DNA of 64,000 bases from Phycisphaerae bacterium (GTDB lineage: Bacteria > Planctomycetota > Phycisphaerae > Sedimentisphaerales > Anaerobacaceae). Below the pieces are notes generated by a model. The model saw only the letters and a list, made by a program, of their open reading frames with translations. It did not search any database and had not been told where the DNA came from. The stretch spans positions 10,156-74,155 of the forward strand of contig DAOWCP010000002.1 in NCBI GenBank assembly GCA_030639495.1. Direction: 5' to 3'. Positions 9,279 to 35,133 of this stretch are shown here, one piece after another. The position numbers and the translations under genes were made by a program. Position 1 is the first letter of the stretch. Every line of letters begins with the position of its first letter.

Positions 9279-10484
9279 ATGAAGTATGCGAGCAAGATAA
9301 TCCTTTTAGTTATTGCTCTTGTCGTTCTTACGGTAATGATTCTGGTGAGAATCTCACTGCATAAACCAAGGCATGAAATTAATAAAGAGGTAGTCGTTGA
9401 TATTCAGCGAAAAGGGTTAATGGGTAAGGAGAATGGTTGGCCTATGTTTCATGGCGGGCCTGAATTGCGGGGGTATACACAAAATGTTTTGCCTGATTCG
9501 TTGACGGTTCTTTGGAAATTTAAGACAGATGATGAAATCAAGTCATCGCCTGTGATTGATGAAGGCCTGGTTTTTATTGGTTCGGCTGACGCGAATGTCT
9601 ATGCGATTGACCTGGAAAATGGTAATCAGGTATGGAGTTATAAAACCGGTGGTGCTGTCGAGGCAACAGCTTGTGTGGTAGATGGTTCTGTTTTCATAGG
9701 CTCGGCAGACAGTTTTCTGTATGCTCTTGATATGAAAACCGGACAGCTTAAGTGGAAGTACGAAACCGGAGGAAAAATATTAGGCTCGGCAAACTGGATA
9801 CACAGCGATAATGAGCAGGATATACAGATAGTTGTTGGAAGCTACGATAGTCAATTGTATTGTTTGAATTCAAAAGATGGTAAGGTTATATGGAGTTACA
9901 GAACAGACAGCTATATTAATGGAACAGCTGCCATCTCTGACGGGAAAATAGTTTTCGGCGGATGTGACGGGATGATACATGTGGTTTCGGTAAAGGACGG
10001 CGCAGGCATCAGTCTTATAGACGCGGGCGCATATATTGCCGGAGCAGCAGCGGTTTCGGGGGGTAATGCTTATGTGGGCAACTATGAAAATGCTTTTATA
10101 AAAACCGATATCGAATCGGGGAAGATTTTGTGGAAATATACGGGCTCCGATGAGCCTTATTTTTCTTCACCGGCAGTCACAAACGGGCGGGTGGTGTTTG
10201 GCGGAAGAGATAATCGAATTCACTGTTTAGAAGCAGATAGCGGCAAAGAAGTGTGGACATTCCAGACGCTGGGAGAGGTGGATAGTTCACCTGTGATCTG
10301 TGGCGGGAGGGTTGTTGTCGGTTGTGAGGATGGAAGGCTATATATGGTTAGACTATCAGACGGCAGTAAAATCTGGTCATTTGAAATTGGTCAGGCGATT
10401 ACTTCTTCACCGGCAGTTGCCGACGGTGTGGTTGTTGTGGGCTGTGATGATGGGTATGTATACGCGTTTGGGCCTGGGCAATAG
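9279..10484 (+). CDS. membrane-anchored PQQ-like beta-propeller repeat protein (BamB/YfgL-like fold)
   Basis: N-terminal TM anchor. Entry motif WPMFHGGPELRG. Repeated blades of the type G-x-VF/YIGSADxxLYALDxxTGxxxWxY. Confidence 0.8.
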   Translation: MKYASKIILLVIALVVLTVMILVRISLHKPRHEINKEVVVDIQRKGLMGKENGWPMFHGGPELRGYTQNVLPDSLTVLWKFKTDDEIKSSPVIDEGLVFIGSADANVYAIDLENGNQVWSYKTGGAVEATACVVDGSVFIGSADSFLYALDMKTGQLKWKYETGGKILGSANWIHSDNEQDIQIVVGSYDSQLYCLNSKDGKVIWSYRTDSYINGTAAISDGKIVFGGCDGMIHVVSVKDGAGISLIDAGAYIAGAAAVSGGNAYVGNYENAFIKTDIESGKILWKYTGSDEPYFSSPAVTNGRVVFGGRDNRIHCLEADSGKEVWTFQTLGEVDSSPVICGGRVVVGCEDGRLYMVRLSDGSKIWSFEIGQAITSSPAVADGVVVVGCDDGYVYAFGPGQ

Positions 10485-10498
10485 ATGGGAGTGGTTTT

Positions 10499-11293
10499 AT
10501 GAGAATAGCTCTAATAGTAGCCGGTGTGGGAGATACCTCGACATGCGTAAACTGTTTGCGTGACGCAGCTTTGATTCGAGAATTTCGCAAACTGGGTCAT
10601 GAAGTATTGGTTGTCCCTTTGTATTTGCCGTTTCGACCCCAGGGTCAGAAACCAGCTGGCCAGGTACCGATTTTTTTTGGCGGGATAAATGTGTATCTGC
10701 AACAAAAATCAATTTTTTTTCGTAAAACCCCTCGCTGGTTTGACCGGATTTTTGATAATCGAAAGCTCCTGGAATGGGCAAGCGGGAAATTTCAGATGGT
10801 CGATGCACAGTTTTTAGGCCAAACAACAGTGTCAATGTTAAAAGGCAGGGATGGTTATCAGGTTAAAGAGCTTGGCCGTCTTAGTCGATGGCTTAATAAA
10901 AAGGAGAACATGCCCGATGTTATATGCCTGTCGAATGCGTTGCTCGCGGGGTTGGCAGAAGCTCTTAAGCTGACGGTCGCTATGCCGGTAGTATGTTTGC
11001 TTCAGGGTGAAGATAAGTTTCTGGACGAACTTGCGCCGCCATATAACCAGCAGGGATGGAGTATCCTTTCCGACTGTGTTTGTGAAATCGATGGTTTTAT
11101 TGCAGTTGGCGAACATTATGCTGATGTTATGAAAAGGAGGCTGGAAATCGGACGGGATAAAATGCACGTTGTTTATGCTGATAATTCAGATGCAAAAGAA
11201 GGTGTGAGATATAATATTGACAAGCTATCAGAGAAAATAGCATTTGTATTTACAAAAATATTGAAAAACTTTACTGAGGGCGATCATGCTTGA
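10499..11293 (+). CDS. hypothetical protein resembling the N-terminal half of a GT4-type glycosyltransferase; the C-terminal catalytic half is not evident
   Basis: Begins MRIALIVAGVGD...LGHEVLVV. Only 264 aa. The 3' end overlaps the ABC ATPase gene by 8 nt. Confidence 0.35.
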   Translation: MRIALIVAGVGDTSTCVNCLRDAALIREFRKLGHEVLVVPLYLPFRPQGQKPAGQVPIFFGGINVYLQQKSIFFRKTPRWFDRIFDNRKLLEWASGKFQMVDAQFLGQTTVSMLKGRDGYQVKELGRLSRWLNKKENMPDVICLSNALLAGLAEALKLTVAMPVVCLLQGEDKFLDELAPPYNQQGWSILSDCVCEIDGFIAVGEHYADVMKRRLEIGRDKMHVVYADNSDAKEGVRYNIDKLSEKIAFVFTKILKNFTEGDHA

Positions 11294-11978
11294 ACTGATA
11301 AATATCAGAAAGGAATATCGATCACCGGTAGAAGATCGAAGTGTCGTTGTTTTGAACGATATAAGTCTAAAAGTCAGTGAGGGACAATCTTTGGCAATAG
11401 TAGGGCCCTCTGGTAGTGGAAAAAGTACACTGCTTAATATCATTGGAACGCTTGACAGCCCCACTGCCGGGCGTGTGCTTTTCGATGATACGGACCTGGC
11501 GAAAGTTAATGATAGCCAACTTGCAAAAATGCGCAATGAGCAGATAGGATTTGTTTTTCAGCTGCACCATCTTCTGCCGCAATGCAGTGTGCTTGAGAAT
11601 GTTTTGATACCTACGCTTGTAGGGGAAAAAGTGACTTCCAGAAAAGCATTTGAGCAAAGGGCTGTTGGTTTGCTTGAACATGTTGGTCTAAAAGATTTGC
11701 TGTATCACAGACCATCAGAGCTTTCAGCAGGCCAGAGACAGCGGGTAGCGGTTGTCAGGGCTTTAATAAATAAGCCGAAATTGCTGCTGGCTGATGAGCC
11801 GACCGGCTCGCTCGATGCTGAGGCTTCAGAGACGATAGCGGAATTGTTGGTAGAGTTAAACAAAAGCGAAAAGGTAACGTTGCTTGTTGTAACACATTCC
11901 AACAGACTTGCTGAGCGTATGGGTCAGGTGTTAGCTATCGAAAAAGGTAAACTTGTTAAGAGGAAAAGCGGAGAGTAA
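11286..11978 (+). CDS. ABC transporter ATP-binding protein of the FtsE/LolD/MacB family
   Basis: Walker A GPSGSGKST. Signature LSAGQRQRVAVVRAL. Walker B LLLADEPTGSLD. The Q-loop and H-loop (VTHS) are also present. Confidence 0.9.
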   Translation: MLELINIRKEYRSPVEDRSVVVLNDISLKVSEGQSLAIVGPSGSGKSTLLNIIGTLDSPTAGRVLFDDTDLAKVNDSQLAKMRNEQIGFVFQLHHLLPQCSVLENVLIPTLVGEKVTSRKAFEQRAVGLLEHVGLKDLLYHRPSELSAGQRQRVAVVRALINKPKLLLADEPTGSLDAEASETIAELLVELNKSEKVTLLVVTHSNRLAERMGQVLAIEKGKLVKRKSGE

Positions 11979-11983
11979 TAATA

Positions 11984-14900
11984 TTGTCACTGATTAAAAA
12001 AAGTCTTACTTTTTATTGGAGAACCAACATTGGCGTGCTGCTGGCGGTTATTGTTGGTACTGCTGTTCTGGCTGGGTCGCTTTTTGTAGGTGACTCGGTA
12101 GAATACAGCCTGAAAATGACAGTCGAAAGAAGGCTTGGAAGTACCGAACTTGCTTTGATGACCGGCGACAGGTTCTTTACAAATGAGCTGACAGAGAGAT
12201 TGGCTGATAAATTGGACGCTCAGACGGCAGGTGTGCTGGGAGTCAGGGGGATGGTTGCAAACAGCGACGGGACCGGGCGGGCTAACAGAGTTGAGATACT
12301 TGGCGTTGATGCGAGATTTTATGAGATTACAGCGGCAAGTAATAATCCCTTTCAAAATGGTGATAATTCCGGTGTTATTATAAATGAATCGCTTGCTGAT
12401 CGAATCGGAGTAAAAGCAGGTGATGAGGTTTTGCTTCGAATCGCAAAGCCGGCTTCGATGTCACGAGAGATCGTGTTGACGCCGAAATCTGATTTAACGA
12501 TTGCTTTTCGATTAAAAGTAACCGCTATCGCCAATCAGTCACAGTCCGGGTTATTTAGTTTACAGGCGAACCAGATCTCACCGTTGAACGCATTTGTTCC
12601 GCTGCAATGGCTGCAGGAGAAATCGGGACGTGAGAGTCAGGCTAATATGTTGCTGGTCGCTTCGGGCACAGAAGCCGGGATAAGTACTGAAAAAGCAAAT
12701 GAATCCATCAGAGAATGTTTACAGCTTGGGGATATGGGATTGGAAGTTCGTAGTAATGCTGAAAGAGATTCACTCGAGTTGCGCAGCAACAGGATATTTA
12801 TAGATAGCCGGATTGGAGATGTCTCTGTCGAAAGCGGCAAAGAAGCAGTTGGAGTTCTGACGTATTTTGTGAACCGATTGCGAGCGGGCGGCAAGACAAC
12901 TCCATATTCCATGGTTACCGCTATGAGCACCTCGGACGATAAAAACAGCTTGATCCCCATGGATATGACCGATGATGAAATAATCATAAACCAATGGCTT
13001 TGTGATGACCTGGAGACAAGAGCCGGTGATTTTATCGAGGTGGACTATTTCGTTATTTCCAGCGGTAGAAAGCTCACAGAAAATACCGCTAAATTTCGTG
13101 TGCGTGCGGTAGTGCCGCTTGATGGGCCGGCTGGTGATCCTGATTTGATGCCCGATTTTCCCGGATTGGCAGAGATGGACAATTGCAGGGACTGGGACAC
13201 GGGCATACCAATCGATTTGGATGAAATACGTGACAAAGACGAAAAGTATTGGGACAGCTTTGGGGGAACACCAAAAGCCTTTATCACATTAAAGGCGGGG
13301 CAAAAAATATGGGCTAACAGGTATGGAAACCTGACGGCGGTGCGGTATCCGTTAAACGAAAACAGCGGAGAAAAACTTACCCAAAGCCTTCTGAGCAGAA
13401 TCGATCCTGCACTGTCAGGGTTATATTTTCAACCTGTGCGAAGATTGGGGATAAGGGCAAGTAATGAAGGTACCGACTTCGGCCAGCTTTTTATAGGTTT
13501 TAGTATGTTTATTATTGCGGCGGCATTGGTTCTTTTGGGGCTACTTTTTGTTTTTGGAGTTGAAAAACGATGCAGCGAGATCGGAATATTGCTTGCGGTC
13601 GGTTTTGAAGAAAAAAATATCAAGCGAATGTTTCTGACCGAAGCGATAGTACTGACTTTAATCGGCACCGTTTCCGGGATAGTGACGGGTTTAGTTTATA
13701 CCAATGCCATGCTATATGGCCTTGGAAGTATCTGGCGAACGGCTGTAAGCAACTGGCGAATAAGTTTTTACGTAGAGCCAACAACCTTGTTAAAGGTTGC
13801 TTTGATAGCCGTGACTGTCTGCATGGCTGCAATATGGTTTGCTTTTCGTAAACAGATGCGTAAATCCGCCAGGCAACTTCTCGATGAAAACCTCGAATGG
13901 CAATTTCTGACGACAAACCCTCTTTCAAAGGGACGATTGGCATTGTCTGTGTCAGGATTTTTTGCTGCGGCTGCGGTAATATTTCTCATTCTTATGGGCA
14001 GAGGTGATGAGGGTATTTCGGCAGGTGCTTTTTTTGGCGCGGGCGGACTTTTGTTAATCGCTTCAATTGCGTTGACCCATGCATTATTGAAAATATTCGC
14101 CGGCAGTAAGATCAGACCTGCGGTTTCAATAGCAGCTCTTGCATGGCGAAACTCTTTGAGACGAAGAGGAAGAAGCCTTGCGGTTGTTACGATGCTTGCA
14201 TGCGGAGTTTTTATTGTTATTGCCGTTGGAGCAAACAAACATGATCCGTTAGCCGGCCTGCAAACAAATCAATCAGGTACGGGAGGTTTTAGCTTGATGG
14301 GCGAATCTGCCATAGGTGTTTTGCATGATCTCAACAGTAAATCCGGACGAAAATCGGTCGGACTCGATGCAAAGGAGAGCGAAGATACTGAGATAGTACA
14401 ATTGCGGGTTCGTGATGGCGACGACGCCAGTTGTTTTAATTTAAACAGGGCGCAGCAGCCTCGCTTGTTTGGTATTAATCCAAAAAAACTGCAGCAGCGA
14501 AAATCTTTTTTGTTCACAAGGACAATAGAAGAAAACGGACCAGCTGGTTGGAACTTACTTAATCTTAATTTGGGAGATGATGTAGTTGCAGCGATCGGAG
14601 ATGAGGCTACAATCAAATGGGGCCTTGGTAAATCCGTAGGTGATGAGATTGTATATAGCAACGACAATGGTAAAAGGTTTCGGGTGCGATTAGTCGGTAT
14701 GCTGAAGAACTCAATATTGCAGGGCAGTCTTTTAATTGCTGAAGAAGATTTCATCAGACATTTTCCAACCGAGGCAGGTTACCGGCTGTTTTTCGTTGAC
14801 ACACCAGAGAAAAAGACAAGAAGTATTTCCGAGACACTATCAACAAGATTGAAAGATTATGGGCTGGAAGTAACTACTACTGCCCAAAAACTTGCCGCTT

Positions 14901-15298
14901 TTAGTGCCGTTGAAAATAGTTATTTATCGATTTTTCAACTGTTGGGGAGTTTCGGATTGATTCTTGGAAGTGTTGGTCTTGGTGTGGTTGTTGGGCGAAA
15001 TGTCCTTGACCGAAGGGGCGAGTTGGCAATGCTAAGAGCGATCGGGTTTAACAGGAAAACTTTAAAACTAATGGTGTTCTATGAGCATGTTGGGCTTTTG
15101 TTCTGGGGTTTGTTTCTTGGAAGCATAACAGCATTAATAGCGATTTTTCCCGTACTGAACGAATCAGTGACAGAAGTTCCTTATTTATCATTGATATTAT
15201 CAATAATGGCAATAGCCGTCAGCGGTGTTATATGGATATGGATAGGAACTTCTATTGCTTTAAGCGGCAAAATCATTGACGGGCTCAGGAGAGAATAA
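11984..15298 (+). CDS. large ABC transporter permease with two FtsX-type 4-TM domains and large extracytoplasmic domains (MacB/LolCE-like, 1104 aa)
   Basis: N-terminal TM. Two FtsX-domain TM bundles at about aa 490-640 and 950-1104, with long periplasmic regions between them. It immediately follows the cognate ATPase. Confidence 0.85.
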   Translation: MSLIKKSLTFYWRTNIGVLLAVIVGTAVLAGSLFVGDSVEYSLKMTVERRLGSTELALMTGDRFFTNELTERLADKLDAQTAGVLGVRGMVANSDGTGRANRVEILGVDARFYEITAASNNPFQNGDNSGVIINESLADRIGVKAGDEVLLRIAKPASMSREIVLTPKSDLTIAFRLKVTAIANQSQSGLFSLQANQISPLNAFVPLQWLQEKSGRESQANMLLVASGTEAGISTEKANESIRECLQLGDMGLEVRSNAERDSLELRSNRIFIDSRIGDVSVESGKEAVGVLTYFVNRLRAGGKTTPYSMVTAMSTSDDKNSLIPMDMTDDEIIINQWLCDDLETRAGDFIEVDYFVISSGRKLTENTAKFRVRAVVPLDGPAGDPDLMPDFPGLAEMDNCRDWDTGIPIDLDEIRDKDEKYWDSFGGTPKAFITLKAGQKIWANRYGNLTAVRYPLNENSGEKLTQSLLSRIDPALSGLYFQPVRRLGIRASNEGTDFGQLFIGFSMFIIAAALVLLGLLFVFGVEKRCSEIGILLAVGFEEKNIKRMFLTEAIVLTLIGTVSGIVTGLVYTNAMLYGLGSIWRTAVSNWRISFYVEPTTLLKVALIAVTVCMAAIWFAFRKQMRKSARQLLDENLEWQFLTTNPLSKGRLALSVSGFFAAAAVIFLILMGRGDEGISAGAFFGAGGLLLIASIALTHALLKIFAGSKIRPAVSIAALAWRNSLRRRGRSLAVVTMLACGVFIVIAVGANKHDPLAGLQTNQSGTGGFSLMGESAIGVLHDLNSKSGRKSVGLDAKESEDTEIVQLRVRDGDDASCFNLNRAQQPRLFGINPKKLQQRKSFLFTRTIEENGPAGWNLLNLNLGDDVVAAIGDEATIKWGLGKSVGDEIVYSNDNGKRFRVRLVGMLKNSILQGSLLIAEEDFIRHFPTEAGYRLFFVDTPEKKTRSISETLSTRLKDYGLEVTTTAQKLAAFSAVENSYLSIFQLLGSFGLILGSVGLGVVVGRNVLDRRGELAMLRAIGFNRKTLKLMVFYEHVGLLFWGLFLGSITALIAIFPVLNESVTEVPYLSLILSIMAIAVSGVIWIWIGTSIALSGKIIDGLRRE

Positions 15299-15313
15299 AG
15301 GAATGGCATATAG

Positions 15314-16717
15314 ATGAAAAACTTTCTTATAGCAAGAGTAATACCAATCTTTTTGGGATTATTGGGCGCTTTTCTGATATTTATTTGGCTTAGAAGCGAT
15401 GTTGCGACCGAATTTACGCTGCGACTGCCCGGCGAAGACGGTAGCGATCGCAATGTTTCTACTGAAACCGAGCCGATAGAAATTGAAGGGGAACTAATTA
15501 AGTTTGAGGGCACAACGACCAATTTGCCCGGCGCATGGCCCCGATTTAGAGGGTCTAATTTTGATGGCGTCAGCCGTCAGAAAATGCAACTTGCCACCGG
15601 ATGGCCCGAACAGGGCCCGCCGTTGCTTTGGTCCATCGATGTCGGCGAAGGATATGCAGGAGCTGCTGTTTTAGCGGGACGGGTCTATGTTTTTGATTAT
15701 GACCGTGAGAATAAATCCGATGTTATTCGTTGTTTGTCACTTGCCGACGGCAAAGATATATGGAGGTATTCTTATCCGGTAAAAGTTAAGCGCAATCATG
15801 GAATGAGCCGAACTGTTTCTGCAGTTACTGAAAAGTACATCGTAACTTTGGGGCCGAAATGCCATGTTACATGTCTCGATTCCGTTACAGGCGAATTTCG
15901 ATGGATGATAAATCTCGTCAGGGAATTCAACACCAAAGTTCCGCAGTGGTATGCAGGCCAATGCCCTTTGATTGAAGGCGACAAGGCAATAATAGCTCCG
16001 GGCGGTGATTCACTTATGATAGCTGTTGATTGCCTGACTGGTGAAATCGTATGGCAAACCCCTAATCCGAATGAATGGAAGATGACGCATTCCTCTATAA
16101 TCCCCGCTGAATTTATGGGCAAACGAATGTATATTTATTGCGCAAGCGGAGCAGTGGTAGGAGTCGATGCTGATGATGGTACTATTTTATGGGAAACAAC
16201 TGACTGGAAAATTCGTATCGCAAATGTACCCTCACCAGTTCTCGCAGGTGATGGTTTGATCTTTCTTTCGGGCGGCTATAACGCAGGCAGTATGATGCTT
16301 CAATTAAAATCTGAAGAAGCGAAAATAATTGCTGATCCCCTTTTCAAACTGGCTCCAGAGGTGTTCGGATCTGCGCAACAGACGCCAATATTTTATAACG
16401 GTTATATTTATGGAGTTCGGCCGGATGGACAATTAACATGTCTTGATTTGACGGGAAAGGTCATGTGGACGAGCACAAGTGCGGAGAAATTCGGCCTCGG
16501 ACCTTATGTCATTATTAATGACTTAATATATGTGATGAATGATTCGGGACTGCTCACTTTAGCAAAGGCTACAGCTGAAAGTTTTTTTAAGCTTGCTCAA
16601 GCAAAAGTTCTCGAAGGGCCGGATTCATGGGGACCTATGGCGTTCGCCGGCGGGAAATTGATCTTGCGAGATATGAATCGAATGATATGTCTGGATATCA
16701 GCGAATATAAAAAGTGA
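15314..16717 (+). CDS. membrane-anchored PQQ-like beta-propeller repeat protein
   Basis: TM anchor. Entry motif WPRFRGSNFDG. Propeller blades as in the 9279 paralog. Confidence 0.8.
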   Translation: MKNFLIARVIPIFLGLLGAFLIFIWLRSDVATEFTLRLPGEDGSDRNVSTETEPIEIEGELIKFEGTTTNLPGAWPRFRGSNFDGVSRQKMQLATGWPEQGPPLLWSIDVGEGYAGAAVLAGRVYVFDYDRENKSDVIRCLSLADGKDIWRYSYPVKVKRNHGMSRTVSAVTEKYIVTLGPKCHVTCLDSVTGEFRWMINLVREFNTKVPQWYAGQCPLIEGDKAIIAPGGDSLMIAVDCLTGEIVWQTPNPNEWKMTHSSIIPAEFMGKRMYIYCASGAVVGVDADDGTILWETTDWKIRIANVPSPVLAGDGLIFLSGGYNAGSMMLQLKSEEAKIIADPLFKLAPEVFGSAQQTPIFYNGYIYGVRPDGQLTCLDLTGKVMWTSTSAEKFGLGPYVIINDLIYVMNDSGLLTLAKATAESFFKLAQAKVLEGPDSWGPMAFAGGKLILRDMNRMICLDISEYKK

Positions 16718-16794
16718 CCATATTGCATTAGATAGCGTTAAAAGTTATAATGAACTTTTATTCCTGTTAACAGTAGATATTAAAAAAACGTTAA

Positions 16795-17820: not shown

Positions 17821-18079
17821 AATAGTGGGCGAATATTCTATGAAAATGCGAAACCGCCGTCAAATAATGACAGGTACTTTGCGATACGCAGTATTGGGCT
17901 TAGTTGGTTTTTTTGCGGGCTCAGCAATTGTAAAAAGACGCAGATTGATAAAGGAAGGCAAGTGCATTAATCTGGGAATATGCCGGGACTGCAAACTCTA
18001 CGAAAGCTGTAGATTGCCTCCAGCCTTGTCAAAAAAACAATTCTTTATAAAAAAAGACAATGTCAAAAGAAAAAATTAA
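17804..18079 (+). CDS. small single-TM protein with a C-x5-C-x2-C-x5-C cysteine motif; the real start is probably the internal Met near 17840
   Basis: TM helix LRYAVLGLVGFFAGSAIV is followed by KCINLGICRDCKLYESC. Its ends overlap both flanking genes, a pattern consistent with translational coupling inside the operon. Confidence 0.4.
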   Translation: MQRQGEIVGEYSMKMRNRRQIMTGTLRYAVLGLVGFFAGSAIVKRRRLIKEGKCINLGICRDCKLYESCRLPPALSKKQFFIKKDNVKRKN

Positions 18080-25565: not shown

Positions 25566-25784
25566 CTTAACAACTACCTCCTTTCAAGGTGTTTTTTTGT
25601 AATAAAGCTATATTCTTGATTTTTTTATTGAACCTTATACGTTCAAATTATTATATACATAAGTGTGATAATATAATTTGCGAAACAAACCATCCTATAA
25701 GGCGGTTTAAGCCAAGGTTGGCTTTTCTGGTCAACTTTGATACAATGTTGTGGAAATTTATGTACTGTTTTAAGGAATCACTAT

Positions 25785-28220: not shown

Positions 28221-28221
28221 A

Positions 28222-29049
28222 TTGAAAAGGCTGAAAATGCTTCTTTTTTGTAATTGCGGTTATTCAGACATAATTGACTCCGAGCTGAAAGATCATATAC
28301 TAAATAAGCTGGTAACCACAAAGCTTGATTTCGAAGTGGTACAGGATTTATGTGGACTATCGGCGAAAAAAGACACTAAGCTTAAATCCTGGAGACAGGC
28401 TGAGTCACTAACAATTGTCGCTTGTTACCGGCGGACGTTAAAATGGCTCTTTAACTATGCAGACGCTGCGCTGGATCCTGAAAAAACCCAATTTCTCAAC
28501 ATGAGGACAAGTTCTGCTGAGGAAATTCTCTCATCCTTATTTAACGAAGAAACTCCTTTCGGGGATAAGCAGGAAATTCAACTTGAAGAAAAAGGAGACT
28601 GGATACCATGGTTTCCGGTAATTGACTACGACCGATGTGAAAATTGCAAACAGTGCCTCAACTTTTGTCTTTTTGGTGTTTACGAACTTTCTCAAGACGA
28701 GCAGGTTCAGGTAACCAATCCTACCGGCTGTAAGACAAACTGTCCAGCTTGCGCAAGACTTTGCCCTTGTAATGCTATTATATTTCCAAAATACGATGAC
28801 AGTCCGATCAATGGCGATGAGGTTGGTGACAGCAAAAAAACAGATATGAATCCTGATGAAATTTACGAAATACTTAAACGGCGAAGCAAAACTAAAAAAC
28901 GATTTGAAAAAGACAGAGCGGACCAGCAGGAAATAGATTTAACAAAACTAAAAGATCAACTGGGAATTCCTTCGGAGGTTTTAGAATCTCTAAGGCCGGC
29001 AGAAGTGACTAAGTTGCAAAAAAAGTCGGAGAAGAAGAACCGTGAGTAA
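28222..29049 (+). CDS. 4Fe-4S ferredoxin-domain protein (likely a dedicated electron donor)
   Basis: CENCKQCLNFC and CKTNCPACARLCPCNAI cluster motifs. Stop and start overlap with the next gene. Confidence 0.65.
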   Translation: MKRLKMLLFCNCGYSDIIDSELKDHILNKLVTTKLDFEVVQDLCGLSAKKDTKLKSWRQAESLTIVACYRRTLKWLFNYADAALDPEKTQFLNMRTSSAEEILSSLFNEETPFGDKQEIQLEEKGDWIPWFPVIDYDRCENCKQCLNFCLFGVYELSQDEQVQVTNPTGCKTNCPACARLCPCNAIIFPKYDDSPINGDEVGDSKKTDMNPDEIYEILKRRSKTKKRFEKDRADQQEIDLTKLKDQLGIPSEVLESLRPAEVTKLQKKSEKKNRE

Positions 29050-30562
29050 ACAACGACTGAGGCCATTAGTAGTTCTTGTCGCCGACAGGACGCTTAGTGC
29101 TGACTATAAAATATTGTTTGAAGGCATCTTTGCCACTATGCAGACTACGCATGTCCCCGAAGTCGCGATGAGATACTTTGTTTCGCCGCGAGTTGCTGTA
29201 GATAGTGACGGGCGGGCAAGGACAGCACCTCTGGGATTGCGCCGAGTTGAATCTGCGCTTCTTGAATATACTGACTTGAAGGCTGAAGATATTGTTTGTA
29301 CGACTCCTGAAGCTTTGCCGGGAGTGTTGGGGCCTTGGGTAAAAATAGTTGGTTTCAGTTCCAGCGATCCTTTGGGAAAGGGGATGAGCAATACTACGAC
29401 GGATAATTTCTGGCCTGGTGAGCTTTATACGAGGTACTGGACGCGGAATACGCTTGAGAAGATTCTTGATGCCAAGAGAAAGCATCACTTTAAAGTAGTT
29501 GCAGGTGGTGCGGGTGCATGGCAGCTTGCTCGTTATGATGATAAGGTTGCGAATGAGTGTATTGATGTGATTTTTGAGGGTTATTTTGAGGAACTTGGCC
29601 CTGGGCTTTTTACGGACATCTTAAACGATAAAACCGTGGAGACACATATCTGTGAAAAAGGCTCATCGGTTGAAAAAGTCAGGCCTATAAAACGTGCTTC
29701 GATGCTTGGTATTATAGAGCTTTCCAGGGGTTGCGGGAGAGGGTGTAAGTTCTGTACGATGGCTAGTAAGAAAATGGAGCATCTACCGGCGAGTACGATT
29801 TTGGCTGATTTGGAGACGAATGTTTCTAATGGTGTCACTTCGGTTGTTAGCGGCAGTGAGGATTTTTTCAGGTATGGCGCGAAAGGGTTAAAGCCTGAGT
29901 TTGATAAGCTGCAAAAACTCCTTGAGCAGATGCGGGAAATTGAAAATCTTTCTTTTATGCAGATAGATCATGCCAATATTACAAGCGTGATGCAGATGAC
30001 AGATGAGCAATTGATCGAAACCAGAAGGCTTCTTTCGTGGAACAAGAAAACTGATTTCCTGTGGGTTAATATGGGCGTTGAAAGTGCTAATGGGCATTTG
30101 GTTTTTGCTAACTGTCCGGGTAAGATATCGCCATTTGAAGCGGGTGATTGGGAAGATCTGGTACGTCAGACGGCTGAGCGTATGAAGAGGACGGGGTTCT
30201 TTTCTGTGTTTAGTTTGATTTTGGGCCTGCCTGGTGAGACTGCTGATGATGTCCAGCGAACTCTTAAGCTTGCTAAGTATCTTGGGACGCAAAATGCGGT
30301 GATCTTCCCGGTTTTTTATGAGCCTTTGAGTGAAGACCAGAAGCCTTTTAAGATTGATGATATGCGGCTCGATCATCTTGAGTTGTATAGCACGTGTTAT
30401 GAGATTAATTTCAAAATGGTTCCACGGCTGTATTGGGACAATCAGCGAGCGGGTGGTGTGCCTTGGATTAAACGAGCAGCTATACGCGTCCTGGGCAAAA
30501 CGGAAGTTGCAGCATGGAGAAAAAGTTTCAGGAAAATTAGAAAGCAACTTCAAAGCAGCTAA
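29042..30562 (+). CDS. radical SAM enzyme with an N-terminal B12-binding-like domain (class B radical SAM; candidate isoprenoid or hopanoid tailoring enzyme of the HpnP/HpnR/HpnJ type)
   Basis: CxxxCxxC motif in ELSRGCGRGCKFCTM. Elp3-like LGLPGET. N-terminal Rossmann-like B12-binding region. The gene is embedded between a ferredoxin and terpenoid genes. Confidence 0.8.
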   Translation: MSKQRLRPLVVLVADRTLSADYKILFEGIFATMQTTHVPEVAMRYFVSPRVAVDSDGRARTAPLGLRRVESALLEYTDLKAEDIVCTTPEALPGVLGPWVKIVGFSSSDPLGKGMSNTTTDNFWPGELYTRYWTRNTLEKILDAKRKHHFKVVAGGAGAWQLARYDDKVANECIDVIFEGYFEELGPGLFTDILNDKTVETHICEKGSSVEKVRPIKRASMLGIIELSRGCGRGCKFCTMASKKMEHLPASTILADLETNVSNGVTSVVSGSEDFFRYGAKGLKPEFDKLQKLLEQMREIENLSFMQIDHANITSVMQMTDEQLIETRRLLSWNKKTDFLWVNMGVESANGHLVFANCPGKISPFEAGDWEDLVRQTAERMKRTGFFSVFSLILGLPGETADDVQRTLKLAKYLGTQNAVIFPVFYEPLSEDQKPFKIDDMRLDHLELYSTCYEINFKMVPRLYWDNQRAGGVPWIKRAAIRVLGKTEVAAWRKSFRKIRKQLQSS

Positions 30563-30581
30563 GCTGTTGGAAAAATTAAAA

Positions 30582-32255
30582 ATGTCTAACGATAGTAAAA
30601 ATAAAACTGAATTAAAGCCAGGGCAGGAAAAAGTGCCGCAATCAAAAGATATGCGGGATAAGCTTGTCGGCTTTGCCGGGGAATATGTTCGCGAACATAA
30701 ACTTATTGCTCCTTTGCCGTTAGGGCAATTGCAAAAGCATTGTTTGGCGATAATTAAAGAGCGGGGCGTAAGTGAGTCTTATATTGATTTTCTTGCGGTT
30801 GTTGTGAATAATCAGTTGTGGCGTGAAGCTGTAGCAGCCACTCCTTACGAGAAACGGCTGCTTTTACTACCAAAATGTTTGCGTGACAATGAAAATTGCC
30901 CGGCAGAGTTTGATCAGTTGGGTCTGGCTTGTGAAAATTGTGGTCGCTGCGTGATTGGCGATATAAAATCACAGGCTGAAGAGCTCGGGCTTATGGTTCT
31001 GGTTGCTGAGGGTTCACCTATCGTAATGTCACTTATACAGACGGGCAAGATCGAAGCGGTTATCGGGGTTAGCTGTCTTAGTGTGCTTGAAAAGACGTTC
31101 CCTTATATTGAAGCTGGGGCTGTGCCGTCTCTGGCAATCCCACTATTATACGATGGTTGTGTCAATACCAACGTAGATGTCGATTGGGTGCTCGATGCTA
31201 TTTATGAAAAAAGCAATGACGGTAAAAGTCGGCTTGACTTGCGGGATTTACGTGACAAAGTAAACAGTTTGTTTGAAGAGGATTCTTTGAAAGCATTTTT
31301 GGCAATAGGTGACAGTCAAACTGAAGCCTTGGCGTTGCGGTTTCTTTTAGGTGATGGTAAAAGATGGCGTCCCTTGCTGGTTGCGTATGCACACAAGGCG
31401 ATCGCATTTGAAACTGATAACGACCTTTGCAAAGACCTTTGTAAAACTGCAATTGCTGTAGAATGTTTCCATAAGGCCTCTTTGATACATGATGACATAG
31501 AAGACGGAGACCTTTTGAGATATGGCAAAAGGACGATGCATGCTGAATTTGGGATTCCAATTGCGCTGAATGTTGGTGATTTTTTGCTTGGAGAAGGTTA
31601 CCGTCTTCTGGCGGAACTTGAACTGTCACAAGACATAAAAGTAGAAATGTTAAATGTCTCAGCCCAAGGACACAGGGAGCTTTGCCTTGGACAGGGCAAG
31701 GAGCTTGAATGGGTTAGAAGCCCAAAGCCTTTGTCAATTGCCAAGGTGATCGACATCTTCCAGAAAAAAACTTCTCCTGCGTTTGAAGTAGCCTTAAAAC
31801 TGGGCATGTTATCAACGGGCAAAAAAACGGGGTTAGATGCACTTATAAAAAAATACTCAAATGCCCTTGGGATTGCTTACCAGATTAAAGACGACATAAA
31901 CGATTTTGATTCGAACACAGATTTTGATGATATTACCAGGAGTCGACCTTGTGTATTGCTGGCGATTGCCTGGGAAAAAGCTCAAACCCAGGATAGGCAA
32001 CTACTTGAGTCGCTTTGGCAAAACCAGCAGCAATCTGACGCTTTGAGAGAATCGGTTGCAGAAATGGTTGCCAGGCTGAGAATTAAAACAATTGCGATGA
32101 AACTGATGGAGACTTATAAAGACAAGGCAATCTCTTCTCTTGAGTCTATGGAAGATATCTCCTTTAAAGGTTTGCTGAGGAGAATCGTTAGTAAAATATT
32201 CAATGAAATCGATATTATGGGTTGCTGCGATGACTATAAGACTGGAAATGATTGA
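30582..32255 (+). CDS. fusion of an N-terminal cysteine-motif domain (CENCGRC; DUF116-like) with a trans-polyprenyl diphosphate synthase
   Basis: Two aspartate-rich motifs, IHDDIEDGD (FARM) and KDDINDF (SARM). Start chosen at the first ATG after the upstream stop. The ORF-track start at 30330 would overlap the radical SAM gene by 230 nt. Confidence 0.75.
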   Translation: MSNDSKNKTELKPGQEKVPQSKDMRDKLVGFAGEYVREHKLIAPLPLGQLQKHCLAIIKERGVSESYIDFLAVVVNNQLWREAVAATPYEKRLLLLPKCLRDNENCPAEFDQLGLACENCGRCVIGDIKSQAEELGLMVLVAEGSPIVMSLIQTGKIEAVIGVSCLSVLEKTFPYIEAGAVPSLAIPLLYDGCVNTNVDVDWVLDAIYEKSNDGKSRLDLRDLRDKVNSLFEEDSLKAFLAIGDSQTEALALRFLLGDGKRWRPLLVAYAHKAIAFETDNDLCKDLCKTAIAVECFHKASLIHDDIEDGDLLRYGKRTMHAEFGIPIALNVGDFLLGEGYRLLAELELSQDIKVEMLNVSAQGHRELCLGQGKELEWVRSPKPLSIAKVIDIFQKKTSPAFEVALKLGMLSTGKKTGLDALIKKYSNALGIAYQIKDDINDFDSNTDFDDITRSRPCVLLAIAWEKAQTQDRQLLESLWQNQQQSDALRESVAEMVARLRIKTIAMKLMETYKDKAISSLESMEDISFKGLLRRIVSKIFNEIDIMGCCDDYKTGND

Positions 32256-33114
32256 GGCTGTTAGTCGTTCGAAGGCGGTGATGGGTGATTCGGTTTCTTC
32301 GGTCGTTAACTTTCTAACAGCAAGCATTAATCCTGATGGCGGTTTTAAAGGACGCGACAAGCAAAGCGATTTATACTATACCGTTTTCGGGCTTGAAGCT
32401 TTGCTCGCCTTAGGTGGAACTTTTCCGCGAAATAAAATCTTTAATTTTGTTCAAGGATTTATTGATAAGGACACGGTAGATTTGGTTCATTTAGCAGCAG
32501 CTATACGTTGTTGTGTGAATCTTTCGGAAGGTGATATTGAAAAAAGCCTTCGCGAAAAGTTCATAAAAGACCTTGAGCGGTTTCGCAGTAAAGATGGTGG
32601 ATTTGCTAATGAAATGGGCGTTGAACATGGTACAGCTTATGGTTGCTTTTTTGCATTGATTGCTTACCAGGACTTACAGACAGATATGCCGGCTCATACC
32701 AAGGTAGCGCAATGCATTGGGGCCTTAGCGATTCCTGATGGTGGGTTTACTAACAATGCCAAAATCAAAACTGCCTCGACTAACGCAACTGCAGCGGCTA
32801 TGATAGTCCTAAACCATCTGCATCAATCATCGGATAAAAAAAACGCAGACTGGCTATTTAATCAATGTACTTCAGATGGTGGCTTTGTCGCAATGCCGAT
32901 GGCTCCGATACCTGATTTGCTTTCAACTGCTACTGCTCTGCATGGGTTGGCCGTTACAGGGTTTGAAATTGATACCATCAAGGAGAGGTGTTTGGATTTT
33001 GTTGACAGCCTCTGGTGCGGCAAAGGTGGTTTTTACGGCAATTGGACGGATGATATTGTTGATTGTGAATACACCTATTATGGCTTACTGGCTTTGGGGC
33101 ATCTTGGGAAATGA
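32248..33114 (+). CDS. prenyltransferase / squalene-oxidase-repeat (alpha/alpha-toroid) protein, ~290 aa
   Basis: Repeated DGGF/GG(F/W) motifs (NPDGGFKG, SKDGGFAN, IPDGGFTN, TSDGGFVA, GKGGFYG). Start chosen at the ATGATTGA overlap with the upstream stop; alternative starts at 32203 or 32230 are possible. Confidence 0.6.
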   Translation: MIEAVSRSKAVMGDSVSSVVNFLTASINPDGGFKGRDKQSDLYYTVFGLEALLALGGTFPRNKIFNFVQGFIDKDTVDLVHLAAAIRCCVNLSEGDIEKSLREKFIKDLERFRSKDGGFANEMGVEHGTAYGCFFALIAYQDLQTDMPAHTKVAQCIGALAIPDGGFTNNAKIKTASTNATAAAMIVLNHLHQSSDKKNADWLFNQCTSDGGFVAMPMAPIPDLLSTATALHGLAVTGFEIDTIKERCLDFVDSLWCGKGGFYGNWTDDIVDCEYTYYGLLALGHLGK

Positions 33115-34994
33115 TTATAGATATTAACGAAGAGACTCTTGGTAAAAGTATCCAGGGACTGGAAAAACGTTTGCTTGAATCCAGAACGCCACATGGGTTT
33201 TGGCAGGGACGTTTGTCAAGCAGCGCTCTTTCTACTGCTACTGCGGTTTTCGCTTTGACAATGGTTGATGAAAAAAAATACCAAACGCAAATTCAGCGAG
33301 GACTAAAATGGCTTCGTGATAACTCGAACAGCGATGGGGGCTGGGGTGACACACCTCTAAGCATTAGCAATATCAGCACAACAATGCTCTGCTGGGCAGC
33401 TTTTAAACAGACCGAGATCGCACCTGAATATGAAAAAACAGTAACTGATACAGAGAAATGGCTTATAAAAAATGCCGGCAGTCTCGAACCAGAGCAGTTG
33501 CTAAAGACTGTCAATGCAAAGTATGGCAAAGACAGAACTTTCTCTTCGCCTATTCTGATGATGTGCGCTCTGGCGGGTATGTTAAACGGGGCTGAAGATA
33601 TTTGGAAATTGCTTAAGCCTTTGCCGTTTGAATTGGCAATTGTGCCGCATAAGTTTTATAAGTTTCTGCGATTGCCGGTAGTAAGTTATGCATTACCTGC
33701 ATTGATCGCCATTGGTCAGCTTCAATTTCACCGTCGCAAACCTGCAAATCCGATTACCAGACTTCTAAGATATTTAACACAGGACAAAACTTATAACATA
33801 CTAAAAAAAATTCAGCCGGAAAATGGCGGCTTCCTCGAAGCTGCACCATTAACAAGCTTTGTAGTTATAAGCCTGGCTGCTACAGGAAAAAAAGACAGCA
33901 TCGTCACAAAAAGGGGAATCGGGTTTCTCCTGGATTTGGTAAGGGAAGATGGCAGCTGGCCTATTGATACGAATCTTGCCACATGGGTAACAACTTTATC
34001 TATCAATGCGCTTGCCGGGAATCCTGATTTTAAGAATATTCTCCCAACTAAGGAACGCAAAGATTTACAGCAATGGCTGCTCGTTCAACAACATCGAAAA
34101 GTACACCCTTACACCAACGCCGCTCCCGGGGGTTGGGCATGGACCGATGCGCCGGGGGCAGTTCCTGATGCTGATGATACTGCTGGTGTGCTTATTGCAC
34201 TTTACAATCTTGATTTGGTTGATGACAATGTGACCGAAGCCGTTAGACTAGCTATCGAATGGCTTTTGGACATACAGAATAAAGACGGCGGAATACCGAC
34301 TTTTTGTAAAGGATGGAATAAATTACCTTTCGACCGCAGTGCTGCTGATATCACCGCCCATGTAATAACTGCTATGAAACTATGGTTAGGTTTTTTGCCG
34401 GATTCTATGCAAAGATTGGTAAGAGCTGCAATTAAAAAAGCTCTTGGCTACCTCCAGCAAACACAACAAGGCAATGGTTCGTGGCTTCCCTTATGGTTTG
34501 GCAATCAGTTTGAATCTCAGCAGCAAAATCCTGTTTATGGAACAGCTAAAGTTCTAATATCTTTGTCCCAATTCATCAACACTGACAGCAATATTTCCGA
34601 AAGGATGTTTTCTGATTCTGTTAAATGGCTTCTGGAGGCACAAAATCATGATGGTGGATGGGGGCCGAGCAAATCAATAATATCATCTATAGAAGAGACA
34701 TCGCTCGCTGTAGATGCTCTTGTTAGCCTTATAAACCAGTTAGCCCAGCGCTCAAAAAAGGCGTGCGATTTGTTTCACAATCTTGAGCAAATGCGATCGG
34801 CGGTCTTAACAGGAACAGCCTGGCTCATAAAAAGAACTGACAAAAGTTTTACTGCTGCTCCGATTGGTTTATATTTTGCCCGACTTTGGTATTTTGAAGA
34901 GTTATATCCTGTTATTTTTGCATTATCTGCTATGAAAAAAATGAAATTAGAAAGCTACTTCAGAAACGTAATATCCCTTAGAAACTCAAAATGA
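33111..34994 (+). CDS. shc: squalene-hopene cyclase-like class II triterpene cyclase
   Basis: DxDDTA catalytic motif in VPDADDTAGV. Multiple QW/DGGW repeats (SDGGWGD, KDGGIP, HDGGWGP). 627 aa. ATGA start/stop overlap with the upstream gene. Confidence 0.85.
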   Translation: MIIDINEETLGKSIQGLEKRLLESRTPHGFWQGRLSSSALSTATAVFALTMVDEKKYQTQIQRGLKWLRDNSNSDGGWGDTPLSISNISTTMLCWAAFKQTEIAPEYEKTVTDTEKWLIKNAGSLEPEQLLKTVNAKYGKDRTFSSPILMMCALAGMLNGAEDIWKLLKPLPFELAIVPHKFYKFLRLPVVSYALPALIAIGQLQFHRRKPANPITRLLRYLTQDKTYNILKKIQPENGGFLEAAPLTSFVVISLAATGKKDSIVTKRGIGFLLDLVREDGSWPIDTNLATWVTTLSINALAGNPDFKNILPTKERKDLQQWLLVQQHRKVHPYTNAAPGGWAWTDAPGAVPDADDTAGVLIALYNLDLVDDNVTEAVRLAIEWLLDIQNKDGGIPTFCKGWNKLPFDRSAADITAHVITAMKLWLGFLPDSMQRLVRAAIKKALGYLQQTQQGNGSWLPLWFGNQFESQQQNPVYGTAKVLISLSQFINTDSNISERMFSDSVKWLLEAQNHDGGWGPSKSIISSIEETSLAVDALVSLINQLAQRSKKACDLFHNLEQMRSAVLTGTAWLIKRTDKSFTAAPIGLYFARLWYFEELYPVIFALSAMKKMKLESYFRNVISLRNSK

Positions 34995-35049: not shown

Positions 35050-35133
35050 TGGGCCAGGCTGGATTCGAACCAGCGTAAGCTTACGCTAATGGGTTTACAG
35101 CCCATTCCCTTTAGCCACTCGGGCACTGACCCC
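35050..35133 (-). tRNA. tRNA-Tyr (anticodon GTA) with long variable arm; CCA not encoded
   Basis: The reverse complement folds as acceptor GGGTCAG/CTGGCCC, D-arm CCCGAGTGGCTAAAGGGA, anticodon loop CTGTAAA (GUA), long variable arm and T-loop GGTTCGAATCC. It is close to E. coli tRNA-Tyr. Confidence 0.9.

Follow-up and report, generated by a model that had tools for sequence, protein, structure and literature searches.

Within a 64,000-nucleotide stretch of the genome of a Phycisphaerae bacterium (Planctomycetota; contig DAOWCP010000002.1, positions 10,156 to 74,155 of the forward strand), called the window in the following, a locus of 18 densely packed genes extends over positions 9279-34994. 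Its first part (g01 to g11, module A) encodes membrane-anchored beta-propellers, a glycosyltransferase remnant, an ATP-binding cassette (ABC) transporter, an iron-sulfur conduit and two flavo-iron-sulfur proteins. Its last part (g13 to g17, module B) encodes a ferredoxin-like protein, a radical S-adenosylmethionine (rSAM) enzyme, a prenyl diphosphate synthase, a small toroid protein and a terpene cyclase, and a secreted propeller, g12, is located at the hinge. Comparison with related loci demonstrates that each of the two modules is conserved and that the modules adjoin in some genomes and stand apart in others.

Gene organization and sampling of related loci

All long open reading frames (ORFs) listed for positions 9279-34994 are located on the plus strand, to which all gene coordinates below refer, and the GC skew is steadily positive across this interval. 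ORFs of at least 100 amino acids (aa) account for 17 genes, while the eighteenth, the small ORF g06b (17840-18079, 79 aa), occupies an apparent 239-bp gap between the gene for an NHL-repeat propeller and the gene for a polyferredoxin. Translational starts were refined to the ATG codons at 25785 for g12 and at 30582 for g15; both coincide with gene calls made independently on the source contig in metagenome ERZ23498405, and the start of g15 is confirmed by an identical 557-aa database protein. With these starts, gene junctions range from -26 to +19 bp with two exceptions, 77 bp and 219 bp (25566-25784). The tight junctions bear out the operon-like, plus-strand organization of 18 genes that had been proposed by a previous reading of this DNA without database searches (the sequence-only reading), and the one 220-bp gap described there matches the 219 bp found. 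The gene list of that reading was incomplete in that the glycosyltransferase-like g02 was not part of it. Pfam and NCBIfam domain searches, of the kind it had proposed, reproduced its family assignments at the domain level. Promoter and terminator scans yield consensus matches only; by consensus scan, no intrinsic terminator was found within any intergenic gap of the locus.

Related loci were collected with two anchors. The NapH-like protein g08 identified at least 592 confirmed stretches (of at least 600 matched) in species-representative genomes, and the rSAM protein g14 identified 280 confirmed loci on metagenome contigs; in each case, 80 were kept. The 17 long window proteins were mapped on every kept locus by tblastn, with 10 kb covered on each side of the anchor. 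Many of these loci, individually designated by L numbers, originate from related lineages, so that locus counts do not represent independent events. The source labels of rSAM, NapH-like and synthase homologs read Phycisphaerae, Sedimentisphaerales, Planctomycetota or Anaerohalosphaera.

Flavo-iron-sulfur enzymes and iron-sulfur conduit of module A

The 784-aa protein g10 (21656-24010) consists, according to Pfam, of a NuoE-like [2Fe-2S] domain, a NuoF-like part with sites for flavin mononucleotide (FMN) and nicotinamide adenine dinucleotide (NADH) and a C-terminal part with 2x[4Fe-4S]. Its best PDB relatives are 9bov_B, StnB (8oh5_B) and NfnB (9n5u_B), with E values from 1e-220 to 1e-208. As the alignments to 9bov_B and 8oh5_B are near full-length across the NuoF part (E values of 1e-220 and 1e-210) and are complemented by the N-terminal NuoE-like domain, g10 is identified as a fused BfuC-BfuB core. 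This assignment agrees with the published definition of the BfuBC core, a NuoF-like protein with extra [2Fe-2S] and 2x[4Fe-4S] clusters plus a NuoE-like protein (PMC9304861).

The subsequent gene g11 (24003-25565, 520 aa) encodes a short BfuA/NfnA-like subunit, as assigned by PDB alignment to 9bov_A and 8oh5_C. It retains the [2Fe-2S] domain, the GltD-type flavin adenine dinucleotide (FAD) part with 2x[4Fe-4S] and the HydA/NuoG-like iron-sulfur domain. The alignment skips target residues 288 to 425, a deletion of the NADPH subdomain, and the Fdh-like C-terminal half is also absent. Equally, orthologs of g11 keep a short spacing of ~119 aa from the GxGxxG motif of the FAD site to GVFAGGD. The absence of the NADPH subdomain argues that NADP(H) is not the third substrate, and a function of g11 as an NADPH-dependent GltD/NfnB-type enzyme was rejected on this ground. 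Of the NAD(P)H-dependent enzymes expected from the sequence-only reading, the one with an NADH site, g10, has been retained, while g11 has lost the subdomain for NADPH.

The putative membrane conduit is composed of g08 and g07. The protein g08 (18620-19948, 442 aa; Fer4_5, 7e-14) is a polytopic NapH-like membrane iron-sulfur protein with ~7 hydrophobic segments, which displays the NapH hallmark of two CX3CP and two CX2CX2CX3CP motifs (at residues 145, 233, 261 and 410) and scores 48 bits against the NapH model TIGR02163 with its cut-off of 213. A homolog search with g08 returned 7669 homologs. Directly upstream, g07 (18060-18620, 186 aa) encodes a NapG-like polyferredoxin with a twin-arginine translocation (TAT) signal (RRKFLK) and approximately four [4Fe-4S] clusters recognized by Fer4 families; 17 cysteines and the RR motif are conserved in 73 sequences, and no match was obtained to the NCBIfam NapG model. 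The small g06b combines an RR motif, one transmembrane helix and the cysteine motif CX5CX2CX6C. It has no Pfam match and is considered a real gene because its position upstream of the polyferredoxin gene is kept: in 64 of 74 related loci, tblastn places it immediately before the ortholog of g07. No gene for a molybdopterin reductase or a nitrate reductase (napA/napB) is present in the window.

Beta-propellers, glycosyltransferase and ABC transporter of module A

Four propeller proteins of module A surround these iron-sulfur proteins. The core of the module opens with g05 (15314-16717, 467 aa), a membrane-anchored propeller of the Pfam family PQQ_2, named after pyrroloquinoline quinone (PQQ), with the conserved motifs KRxHGMSRT, QCP and MTH. 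Its PDB similarity to BamB is weak, though its best PDB matches are BamB structures, and it is syntenic in all 55 loci that yield an ortholog. It is followed by g06 (16795-17820, 341 aa), a membrane-anchored propeller of NHL repeats (Pfam); at least 90% of 65 sequences preserve its Cys251-Cys252 pair (17545-17550), part of a GCCNP motif. The third core propeller, g09 (19932-21656, 574 aa), carries its PQQ_2 domain after an N-terminal membrane region of three helices, as derived from Pfam and hydropathy, and comes after the NapH-like gene in almost every locus of sufficient length. The fourth, g01 (9279-10484, 401 aa), is a PQQ_2/BamB-like propeller of the eight-bladed type (Pfam PQQ_2, 2e-44) anchored by a single N-terminal transmembrane helix according to hydropathy; its BamB score in NCBIfam stays under the cut-off, and in relatives it is located upstream of the glycosyltransferase and ABC genes.

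Together with g12, the locus thus contains four PQQ-type proteins with five propeller domains, rather than the five PQQ-type proteins counted from sequence alone. The membrane anchoring proposed for the propellers is predicted by hydropathy for g01, g05, g06 and g09, whereas g12 has a cleavable-looking signal peptide and is a double propeller. By hydropathy, the propellers carry transmembrane anchors or a type I-like signal and not a lipobox, and their scores against the NCBIfam equivalogs for BamB and PQQ-dependent dehydrogenases remain far under the cut-offs.

Between g01 and the core, three further genes are found. The gene g02 (10499-11293, 264 aa; Pfam Glyco_transf_4) encodes the remnant of a glycosyltransferase of family 4 (GT4) that comprises the N-terminal domain only. 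In most related loci, its orthologs are full-length GT-B proteins of ~415-434 aa, while in the window and in the close relative L036 an in-frame internal deletion has removed ~170 aa of the C-terminal catalytic domain. The ABC ATPase g03 (11286-11978, 230 aa; ABC_tran, 2e-37) is of the LolD/MacB/DevA type with 261.8 bits against the LolD model TIGR02211 (cut-off 307.75). Its partner g04 (11984-15298, 1104 aa) is a duplicated FtsX-type permease with two FtsX domains in Pfam and weak matches to ADOP, LolCE and DevC, the LolCE score being 28 bits with a cut-off of 362. Hydropathy of g04 indicates a transmembrane helix, a periplasmic loop of ~470 aa, a transmembrane bundle, a loop of ~230 aa and a second transmembrane bundle.

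The module boundary and the hinge gene g12

The only long intergenic gap of the locus (25566-25784, 219 bp) coincides with the evolutionary break between the modules and contains the promoter-like consensus match TTGGCT-17-TACAAT with an upstream TG (25718-25746). Its length and the promoter-like match at the module boundary make two transcription units, g01-g11 and g12-g17, plausible, and the gap is likely the boundary of both modules and transcription units.

Downstream of the gap, g12 (25785-28220, 811 aa) encodes a double PQQ_2 propeller (Pfam) with a cleavable-looking signal peptide at its N-terminus and no membrane anchor. The protein is a lineage-specific fusion of two orthogroups, g12N and g12C. 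The two halves are 31% identical to each other and ~50% identical to their own orthologs; in many genomes, g12N and g12C are separate genes of ~415 aa. Further variants are seen in relatives, with a triple-propeller ORF of 1252 aa in L101 and N-N doubles in L091 and L097. Propellers of the g12N or g12C type occur directly upstream of the terpenoid block even without nearby Bfu genes, and equally the g12N type occurs after g11 even where the terpenoid block does not follow.

The terpenoid block, module B

The block opens with g13 (28237-29049, 270 aa), a ferredoxin-like protein with an N-terminal cysteine-containing domain and 2x[4Fe-4S] (Fer4_10), whose conserved motifs include WxPWFPVID, CxxCxxCxxxC and CKTNCPACARxCP and whose gene immediately precedes that of the rSAM enzyme in 72 of 80 loci. 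The rSAM enzyme g14 (29042-30562, 506 aa; Radical_SAM, 1e-12) possesses an N-terminal Rossmann-like domain and a conserved CX3CX2C motif (C231, C235 and C238 in CGRGCKFC), and its orthologs are 61-87% identical across related loci. While the PDB sequence search gave nothing better than an E value of 0.02, an AlphaFold2 model with a predicted local distance difference test score (pLDDT) of 81 displays the Rossmann-like domain plus a TIM barrel, with MgmA, AprD4, MiaB, RimO, TsrM and CysS as nearest folds (template modelling score ~0.5, 12-16% identity). The model fits the cobalamin-type enzymes MgmA/TsrM/CysS, the B12-free AprD4 and the methylthiotransferases MiaB/RimO equally well. A Pfam search of residues 1-213 gave no match, to the B12-binding domain (PF02310) or to any other, at E values up to 10; of the B12-radical-SAM enzyme of the sequence-only reading, the radical SAM part is borne out, and g14 may or may not use B12.

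In NCBIfam, g14 has a weak, partial match to TIGR04013 (71 bits, cut-off 251). Candidate identities as HpnH/HpnJ/HpnP/HpnR, Tes/GDGT-MAS or GrsA/B were rejected, as these enzymes gave no NCBIfam or PDB sequence match and are not among the top folds. Equally, g14 falls outside the lipid rSAM families Tes, Mss, Gms, Grs, Gmm, Cds, HpnH/J/P/R, Jaw5 and the ladderane candidates, as listed in a 2026 review (PMC13459092).

The gene g15 (30582-32255, 557 aa) encodes a trans-prenyl diphosphate synthase (Pfam polyprenyl_synt, 8e-44) fused to an N-terminal, cysteine-rich DUF116 domain (8e-37), which the sequence-only reading, correct on the synthase, had overlooked. Both DDxxD motifs are present. The first is preceded by an invariant Ala at position -5 and an invariant Ser at -4, while the nearest solved relative, the geranylgeranyl diphosphate synthase 1WY0, has Tyr at -5. 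In trans-prenyl synthases, the residues before the first DDxxD motif set the product length. By this rule, the small residues at -5/-4 predict a product longer than C20. The DUF116 part retains its conserved cysteines; its structural model, with pLDDT below 50 over residues 84-216, is too poor to be interpreted. A DUF116-synthase fusion has been noted in Pirellula staleyi, and the domain has been proposed to function in electron transfer (PMC5898192). At the C-terminus of g15, the Cys-Cys pair of an MGCCDDYK motif (residues 548-549; 32224-32229) is invariant in a 15-sequence alignment. Judged from sequence, the vicinal cysteines of this motif and of GCCNP in g06 could be redox disulfides, metal sites or modification sites.

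Two toroid proteins complete the block. The small alpha/alpha-toroid g16 (32230-33114, 294-303 aa) is built of prenyltransferase/squalene-oxidase repeats (Prenyltrans, 3e-16) and has the beta subunit of RabGGTase as its nearest PDB relative (E value 1e-3). It lacks a DxDD motif, and its DDxxD motif is not conserved. A role as a protein prenyltransferase beta subunit acting on the Cys-Cys motifs was rejected, as the zinc ligands (Asp/Cys/His) are not preserved: aligned with RabGGTase beta, g16 has Leu in place of the Cys and Tyr in place of the His. The final gene g17 (33111-34994, 627 aa) encodes a class II terpene cyclase like squalene-hopene cyclase (SHC) of beta-gamma architecture (SQHop_cyclase_C, 1.6e-42; SQHop_cyclase_N, 8e-14), which aligns with the SHC of A. 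acidocaldarius (1gsz) through DxDDTA. Residues D353/D355/D356 and His417 are invariant in 42 of 42 orthologs and Tyr476 is present in 40 of the 42; these catalytic residues correspond to D376, H451 and Y495 of the A. acidocaldarius enzyme. An exact-match look-up of the g17 sequence found no record. With 112.7 bits for TIGR01507 (cut-off 431.1) and 121.5 bits for TIGR01787 (cut-off 322.7), the family thresholds are not reached, and a pattern scan retrieved two short QxxxGxW-type matches only and no full QW motif. The retained acid, His and Tyr residues combined with low family scores argue for a protonation-initiated class II cyclase other than a canonical squalene-hopene cyclase. No squalene synthase gene and no isoprenoid genes outside the locus are present in the 64-kb window, and the adjacent synthase suggests that the substrate of g17 may be a polyprenyl compound.

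In eight loci of one lineage, a gene for a major facilitator superfamily protein of family MFS_3 ('transmembrane secretion effector') is inserted between the orthologs of g15 and g16 (L156 at 13237-14643, L146, L151, L154, L155, L157, L159 and L164), all without upstream Bfu genes. This exporter-type gene inside the block is circumstantial evidence that the product leaves the cytoplasm, and supports the export that had been proposed, as a putative step, for an isoprenoid product of the locus.

Conservation and separability of the modules

Dozens of loci share the gene order at protein identities of 40-85%, which is more than expected by chance. In most Phycisphaerae-type loci of sufficient length, the order and strand of g01-g12 are kept at 50-75% identity. 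The core g05-g11 extends further, to records labelled Thermoguttaceae, Planctomycetaceae, Kiritimatiellae, Aminicenantes, Omnitrophota and a few others. In the Kiritimatiellae locus L062 (on a contig of 834 kb) and the Aminicenantes loci L070 and L075, the sub-module of propeller, GT4 and ABC genes follows the core instead of preceding it; the survival of the linkage through this permutation speaks for a joint function of the ABC part and the redox core. With the Bfu, NapH-like, NapG-like and propeller genes staying together while the position of the ABC genes permutes, the synteny fits the earlier suggestion that a NapGH-like pair feeds periplasmic propellers. The core is also seen on short contigs of metagenome-assembled genomes (MAGs) labelled Aegiribacteria, Omnitrophota, Desulfobacteraceae, Aminicenantes, Bacillota and Spirochaetaceae (L007, L053, L061, L070, L071, L075 and L081), with the NapH-like protein of L007 being 65% identical to g08. 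Lateral spread or mis-binning could be behind these contigs of odd phylum.

As a unit of five, g13-g17 stay together in L001-L005 and in almost all those of the 80 rSAM loci that have sufficient length, with L121, which gave no match to g17, as the sole exception seen. Among the 24 rSAM loci with at least 8.9 kb of upstream sequence, nine have the Bfu pair upstream, 11 a propeller gene only and four neither. A PQQ-type propeller is located directly upstream in 26 of the 42 loci with at least 2.6 kb of upstream sequence. From the opposite direction, seven of 17 NapH-like loci with room past g12 run on into g13/g14. Overall, the modules adjoin in ~40% of the informative loci, and adjacency holds at rSAM identities down to ~62%. 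Three arrangements are found: in tandem (window, L002, L015, L040, L046 and others), divergent (L057), and with the terpenoid block first, followed by g01-g03 (L160, L162).

Neighbourhood conservation across relatives had been named by the sequence-only reading as a check of its proposal, and the modules indeed co-localise in this fraction of loci. The proposal of one 18-gene system does not hold in its strict form, because the block lacks a nearby redox module in ~60% of the informative loci and the reverse is also seen. What persists is a tie of the redox genes to the terpenoid block that is suggested by the three arrangements and the shared g12-type propellers, with the two parts being separable.

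Genomic surroundings

The ~1.5 kb preceding g01 (7783-9278) contain no plus-strand ORF of at least 80 aa and are characterized by tandem repeats. T-rich repeats of 9-10 bp are located at 7994-8037, TTTTACGGTT is repeated 3.4 times at 8227-8260, and a tandem array with a 10-bp period and ~15 copies of GAAATGACAA-like units follows directly at 8263-8410. The helical phasing of this array suggests bent DNA or a regulator-binding array. In the 1.5-kb leader and the gaps, Rfam identified no riboswitch or other RNA; its only matches were two tRNAs. One of these, a tRNA-Tyr on the minus strand (35050-35132; ARAGORN and Rfam), marks the downstream end of the locus.

Outside the locus, the window harbours sulfatases, a formylglycine-enzyme domain protein and housekeeping genes. 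The flanks at 35439-41736 and 42854-47826 have the character usual for polysaccharide-degrading Sedimentisphaerales. Confirmed by Pfam are a sulfatase that carries a Laminin_G_3 domain and a protein of 892 aa in which an FGE-sulfatase domain is present, while proteins like uroporphyrinogen decarboxylase/MtaA, fucose isomerase, DUF2961 and a pyrophosphate-type phosphofructokinase located downstream have been judged from their translations only.

Interpretation and alternative explanations

Based on the gene structure, domains, catalytic motifs, module boundaries and synteny described above, the locus is read as a supra-operon of two conserved, separable and loosely coupled modules of anaerobic Planctomycetota of the Phycisphaerae/Sedimentisphaerales kind, one for envelope redox chemistry and one for a cyclic isoprenoid. 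We estimate the probability of this reading at approximately 0.5. Module A probably drives periplasmic redox chemistry from NADH. NADH would be oxidised at the FMN of g10, from where a mid- or high-potential branch may lead via g11 to the cytoplasmic clusters of the NapH-like g08 and, across the membrane, to the TAT-exported g07, perhaps with participation of the Cys4 peptide g06b. Electron recipients would be the anchored periplasmic propellers, two PQQ-like and one of the NHL type with its Cys-Cys pair, in a redox reaction on a periplasmic substrate, while in a low-potential branch the ferredoxin-type domain of g10 may reduce a cytoplasmic ferredoxin. The ABC transporter, which together with the fourth propeller g01 and the GT4 protein g02 belongs to module A, could contribute to this envelope process by export or by mechanical work. 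Bfu enzymes and the nos, mau and NapH-like systems are the models from which we infer the direction of electron flow, the bifurcation and the periplasmic substrate.

The probable product of module B is a cyclic polyprenoid that leaves the cell interior. A prenyl diphosphate above C20 would be built by g15, the chain or a derivative cyclised upon protonation in the SHC-like g17, the product tailored by the rSAM enzyme g14 with electrons delivered by g13 and the DUF116 domain, and the tailored product exported. The two modules are probably loosely coupled, as is suggested by their rearranged adjacency and the shared g12-type propellers; coupling might be mediated by these propellers and by export, with either module able to work without the other next to it. 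The lipid product and the coupling we equally infer, in this case from gene content and gene order.

A number of observations weigh against this reading. None of the proteins reaches the curated NCBIfam cut-off of the named family closest to it, so that activities may differ from those of the namesakes. No recognisable cofactor site is found in the propellers, a scan of the locus for c-type heme motifs found none, and this genome carries a degenerate GT4 gene. For the promoter-like site in the gap, there is a consensus match only, and sites of this kind are rarer here than in shuffled sequence. The taxon labels of short MAG contigs are possibly wrong. Restriction-modification genes precede the terpenoid block in L001, and mur/mraY genes do so in L003-L005; with the block standing alone in many loci, coupling of the modules is at most facultative, and the adjacency could in part reflect shared ancestry within one order.

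Coupling could be tighter or looser than assumed. If all 18 genes constituted a single indivisible pathway to make, tailor, glycosylate and export one polycyclic isoprenoid lipid, with NapGH/Bfu powering a periplasmic step held by the propellers, the co-directional and tightly packed genes, the recurrence of adjacency in three arrangements and the g12-type propellers common to both modules would be readily explained. Such a pathway would also account for the full-length GT4 orthologs, which beside a DevA/MacB-like ABC exporter resemble known glycolipid exporters, and for the MFS exporter found inside blocks that have no ABC module next to them. We nevertheless judge it unlikely, because the modules are apart in ~60% of informative loci, the core of module A occurs in MAGs labelled as other phyla with no terpenoid block seen within 10 kb, and the GT4 protein is inactivated here while the rest is intact. 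Furthermore, to our knowledge no known lipid pathway needs a periplasmic polyferredoxin chain. At the other extreme, an NADH-dependent, periplasm-directed electron sink or respiratory-type reductase of fermentative anaerobes might simply neighbour an ordinary membrane-terpenoid (hopanoid-like) cluster, with an adjacency that is inherited within Sedimentisphaerales and carries no functional meaning. That each module is found alone, that the 219-bp gap with its promoter-like site lies near the evolutionary boundary and that most adjacent cases come from related lineages speak for unrelated neighbours; yet the adjacency is kept despite rearrangement (L057, L160, L162) and over rSAM identities down to ~62%, and propellers of the same two orthogroups flank both modules, which renders this explanation doubtful as well.

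With respect to module A alone, the best NCBIfam names, BamB for the propellers and LolD/LolCE for the ABC transporter, and BamB as the best PDB match of g05 could point to envelope biogenesis, in which BamB-type scaffolds cooperate with a LolCDE-type lipoprotein extractor and the iron-sulfur proteins are incidental. The scores are far below the cut-offs (BamB 187 versus 285; LolD 262 versus 308; LolCE 28 versus 362), the propellers have transmembrane anchors instead of lipoprotein signals and are strictly syntenic with the NapG/NapH-like and Bfu genes in MAGs of several labelled phyla, and the conserved His/Cys motifs of g05 and g06 are absent from BamB. This function is thus considered highly improbable. 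The reading as two loosely coupled modules can, on the other hand, be extended to a more specific version, in which module B produces an rSAM-tailored, cyclised regular polyprenoid, for example of the tricyclopolyprenol type, made straight from a prenyl chain above C20 and not via squalene, exported and then handled or used by g12-type propellers at the envelope, and in which module A represents the first periplasm-directed Bfu complex, with NADH splitting connected through NapH/NapG-like proteins to propeller enzymes, and is coupled to that lipid; in this full detail, the proposal is distinctly improbable.

Significance

Among the anaerobic Planctomycetota that live in sediments, the two modules are common and highly conserved, as reflected by the at least 592 NapH-like stretches and the 280 rSAM loci. 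If true, the predicted function of module A would represent a new wiring in anaerobic bioenergetics, in which a Bfu-type NADH module without the usual third-substrate site is combined with a NapGH-like conduit and propellers that look devoid of cofactors, and could account for the way in which reducing power is disposed of, or split, at the envelope of fermentative Phycisphaerae. Module B is a compact five-gene set that may yield a new cyclic isoprenoid and new lipid-modifying rSAM chemistry. Tricyclic terpanes are biomarkers with unknown producers (PMC9247107); should the polyprenoid reading be true, the abundant Planctomycetota of sediments would be a candidate source of such 'orphan' cyclic terpenoid biomarkers. 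The recurrent yet facultative adjacency of the modules provides a testable hypothesis that links envelope redox chemistry with lipid export.

Comparison with known systems

All parts of the locus derive from known superfamilies, while neither the combination of Bfu, NapGH, propeller and ABC genes nor the block of ferredoxin, rSAM, DUF116/synthase, toroid and cyclase genes is described in the literature searched, in line with the statement of the sequence-only reading that no system of this composition has been described. The features of the Bfu family used here follow published descriptions (PMC10482914; PMC12018979; PMC9304861). Like the Stn/Nfn-Bfu enzymes (StnABC of Sporomusa ovata, 8OH5; NfnABC of Thermococcus sibiricus), g10 possesses the full cofactor set of BfuC and BfuB, with shared sites for the NuoE-like [2Fe-2S], the thioredoxin-like [2Fe-2S], FMN/NADH and the 2x[4Fe-4S] ferredoxin dock, and g11 matches StnC/NfnA in the N-terminal [2Fe-2S] domain, the GltD-type FAD part and the HydA/NuoG-like iron-sulfur domain. 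Unlike in these enzymes, BfuC and BfuB are combined in one chain, and g11 is devoid of the NADPH subdomain of ~135 aa and the Fdh-like C-terminal domain of ~500 aa. Also in difference to Stn/Nfn-Bfu, g10 and g11 are embedded among genes for NapG/NapH-like proteins and periplasmic propellers; in the text of a survey of the Bfu family, neither NapH nor a polyferredoxin nor a PQQ protein appears as a partner (PMC9304861).

NapH-like proteins have been documented as modular transmembrane conduits that link electron pools of the cytoplasm or membrane to periplasmic enzymes, which include the propeller enzymes NirS and ExaA (PMC8238504). With a polytopic protein carrying the NapH motifs and a TAT-exported polyferredoxin, g08 and g07 resemble the NapGH and NapH-like systems (Meheust et al., 2021, PMC8238504). 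Equally, the conduit of module A is encoded beside periplasmic beta-propellers. In contrast to the NapH-like systems, no gene for NapA, NosZ, NirS, methylamine dehydrogenase or ExaA and no FMN-binding domain is found at the locus, and the electrons are predicted to derive not from quinol, as in NapGH, but from a cytoplasmic NADH module of the Bfu type. Comparable conduits are NosGH/NosR with NosZ, MauMN with methylamine dehydrogenase, and PceC, and nos clusters include an ABC transporter, as does module A. The transporter of module A is of the MacB/FtsX type and not of the NosFY type.

Hopanoid (hpn) clusters combine shc with hpnH/hpnP/hpnR, and the sesquarterpene route of Bacillus proceeds via hepST-ytpB-sqhC. 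Module B resembles hpn and other class II cyclase clusters in that a beta-gamma cyclase of the SHC family is encoded beside a prenyl diphosphate synthase and an rSAM enzyme. It differs from hpn clusters by the fusion of the synthase to DUF116 and by the extra small toroid, the dedicated ferredoxin and the secreted propeller.

Finally, g03-g04 resemble type VII transporters such as MacB, LolCDE and DevBCA, with a LolD/MacB/DevA-like ATPase, an FtsX-fold permease and large periplasmic loops. Unlike in these transporters, both permease halves are fused in one chain of 1104 aa, no gene for a membrane-fusion protein or a TolC-like protein is present at the locus, and the partners are membrane-anchored propellers. 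In relatives with a full-length GT4 protein, the glycosyltransferase gene stands beside the ABC genes, an arrangement as it is found in glycolipid export systems.

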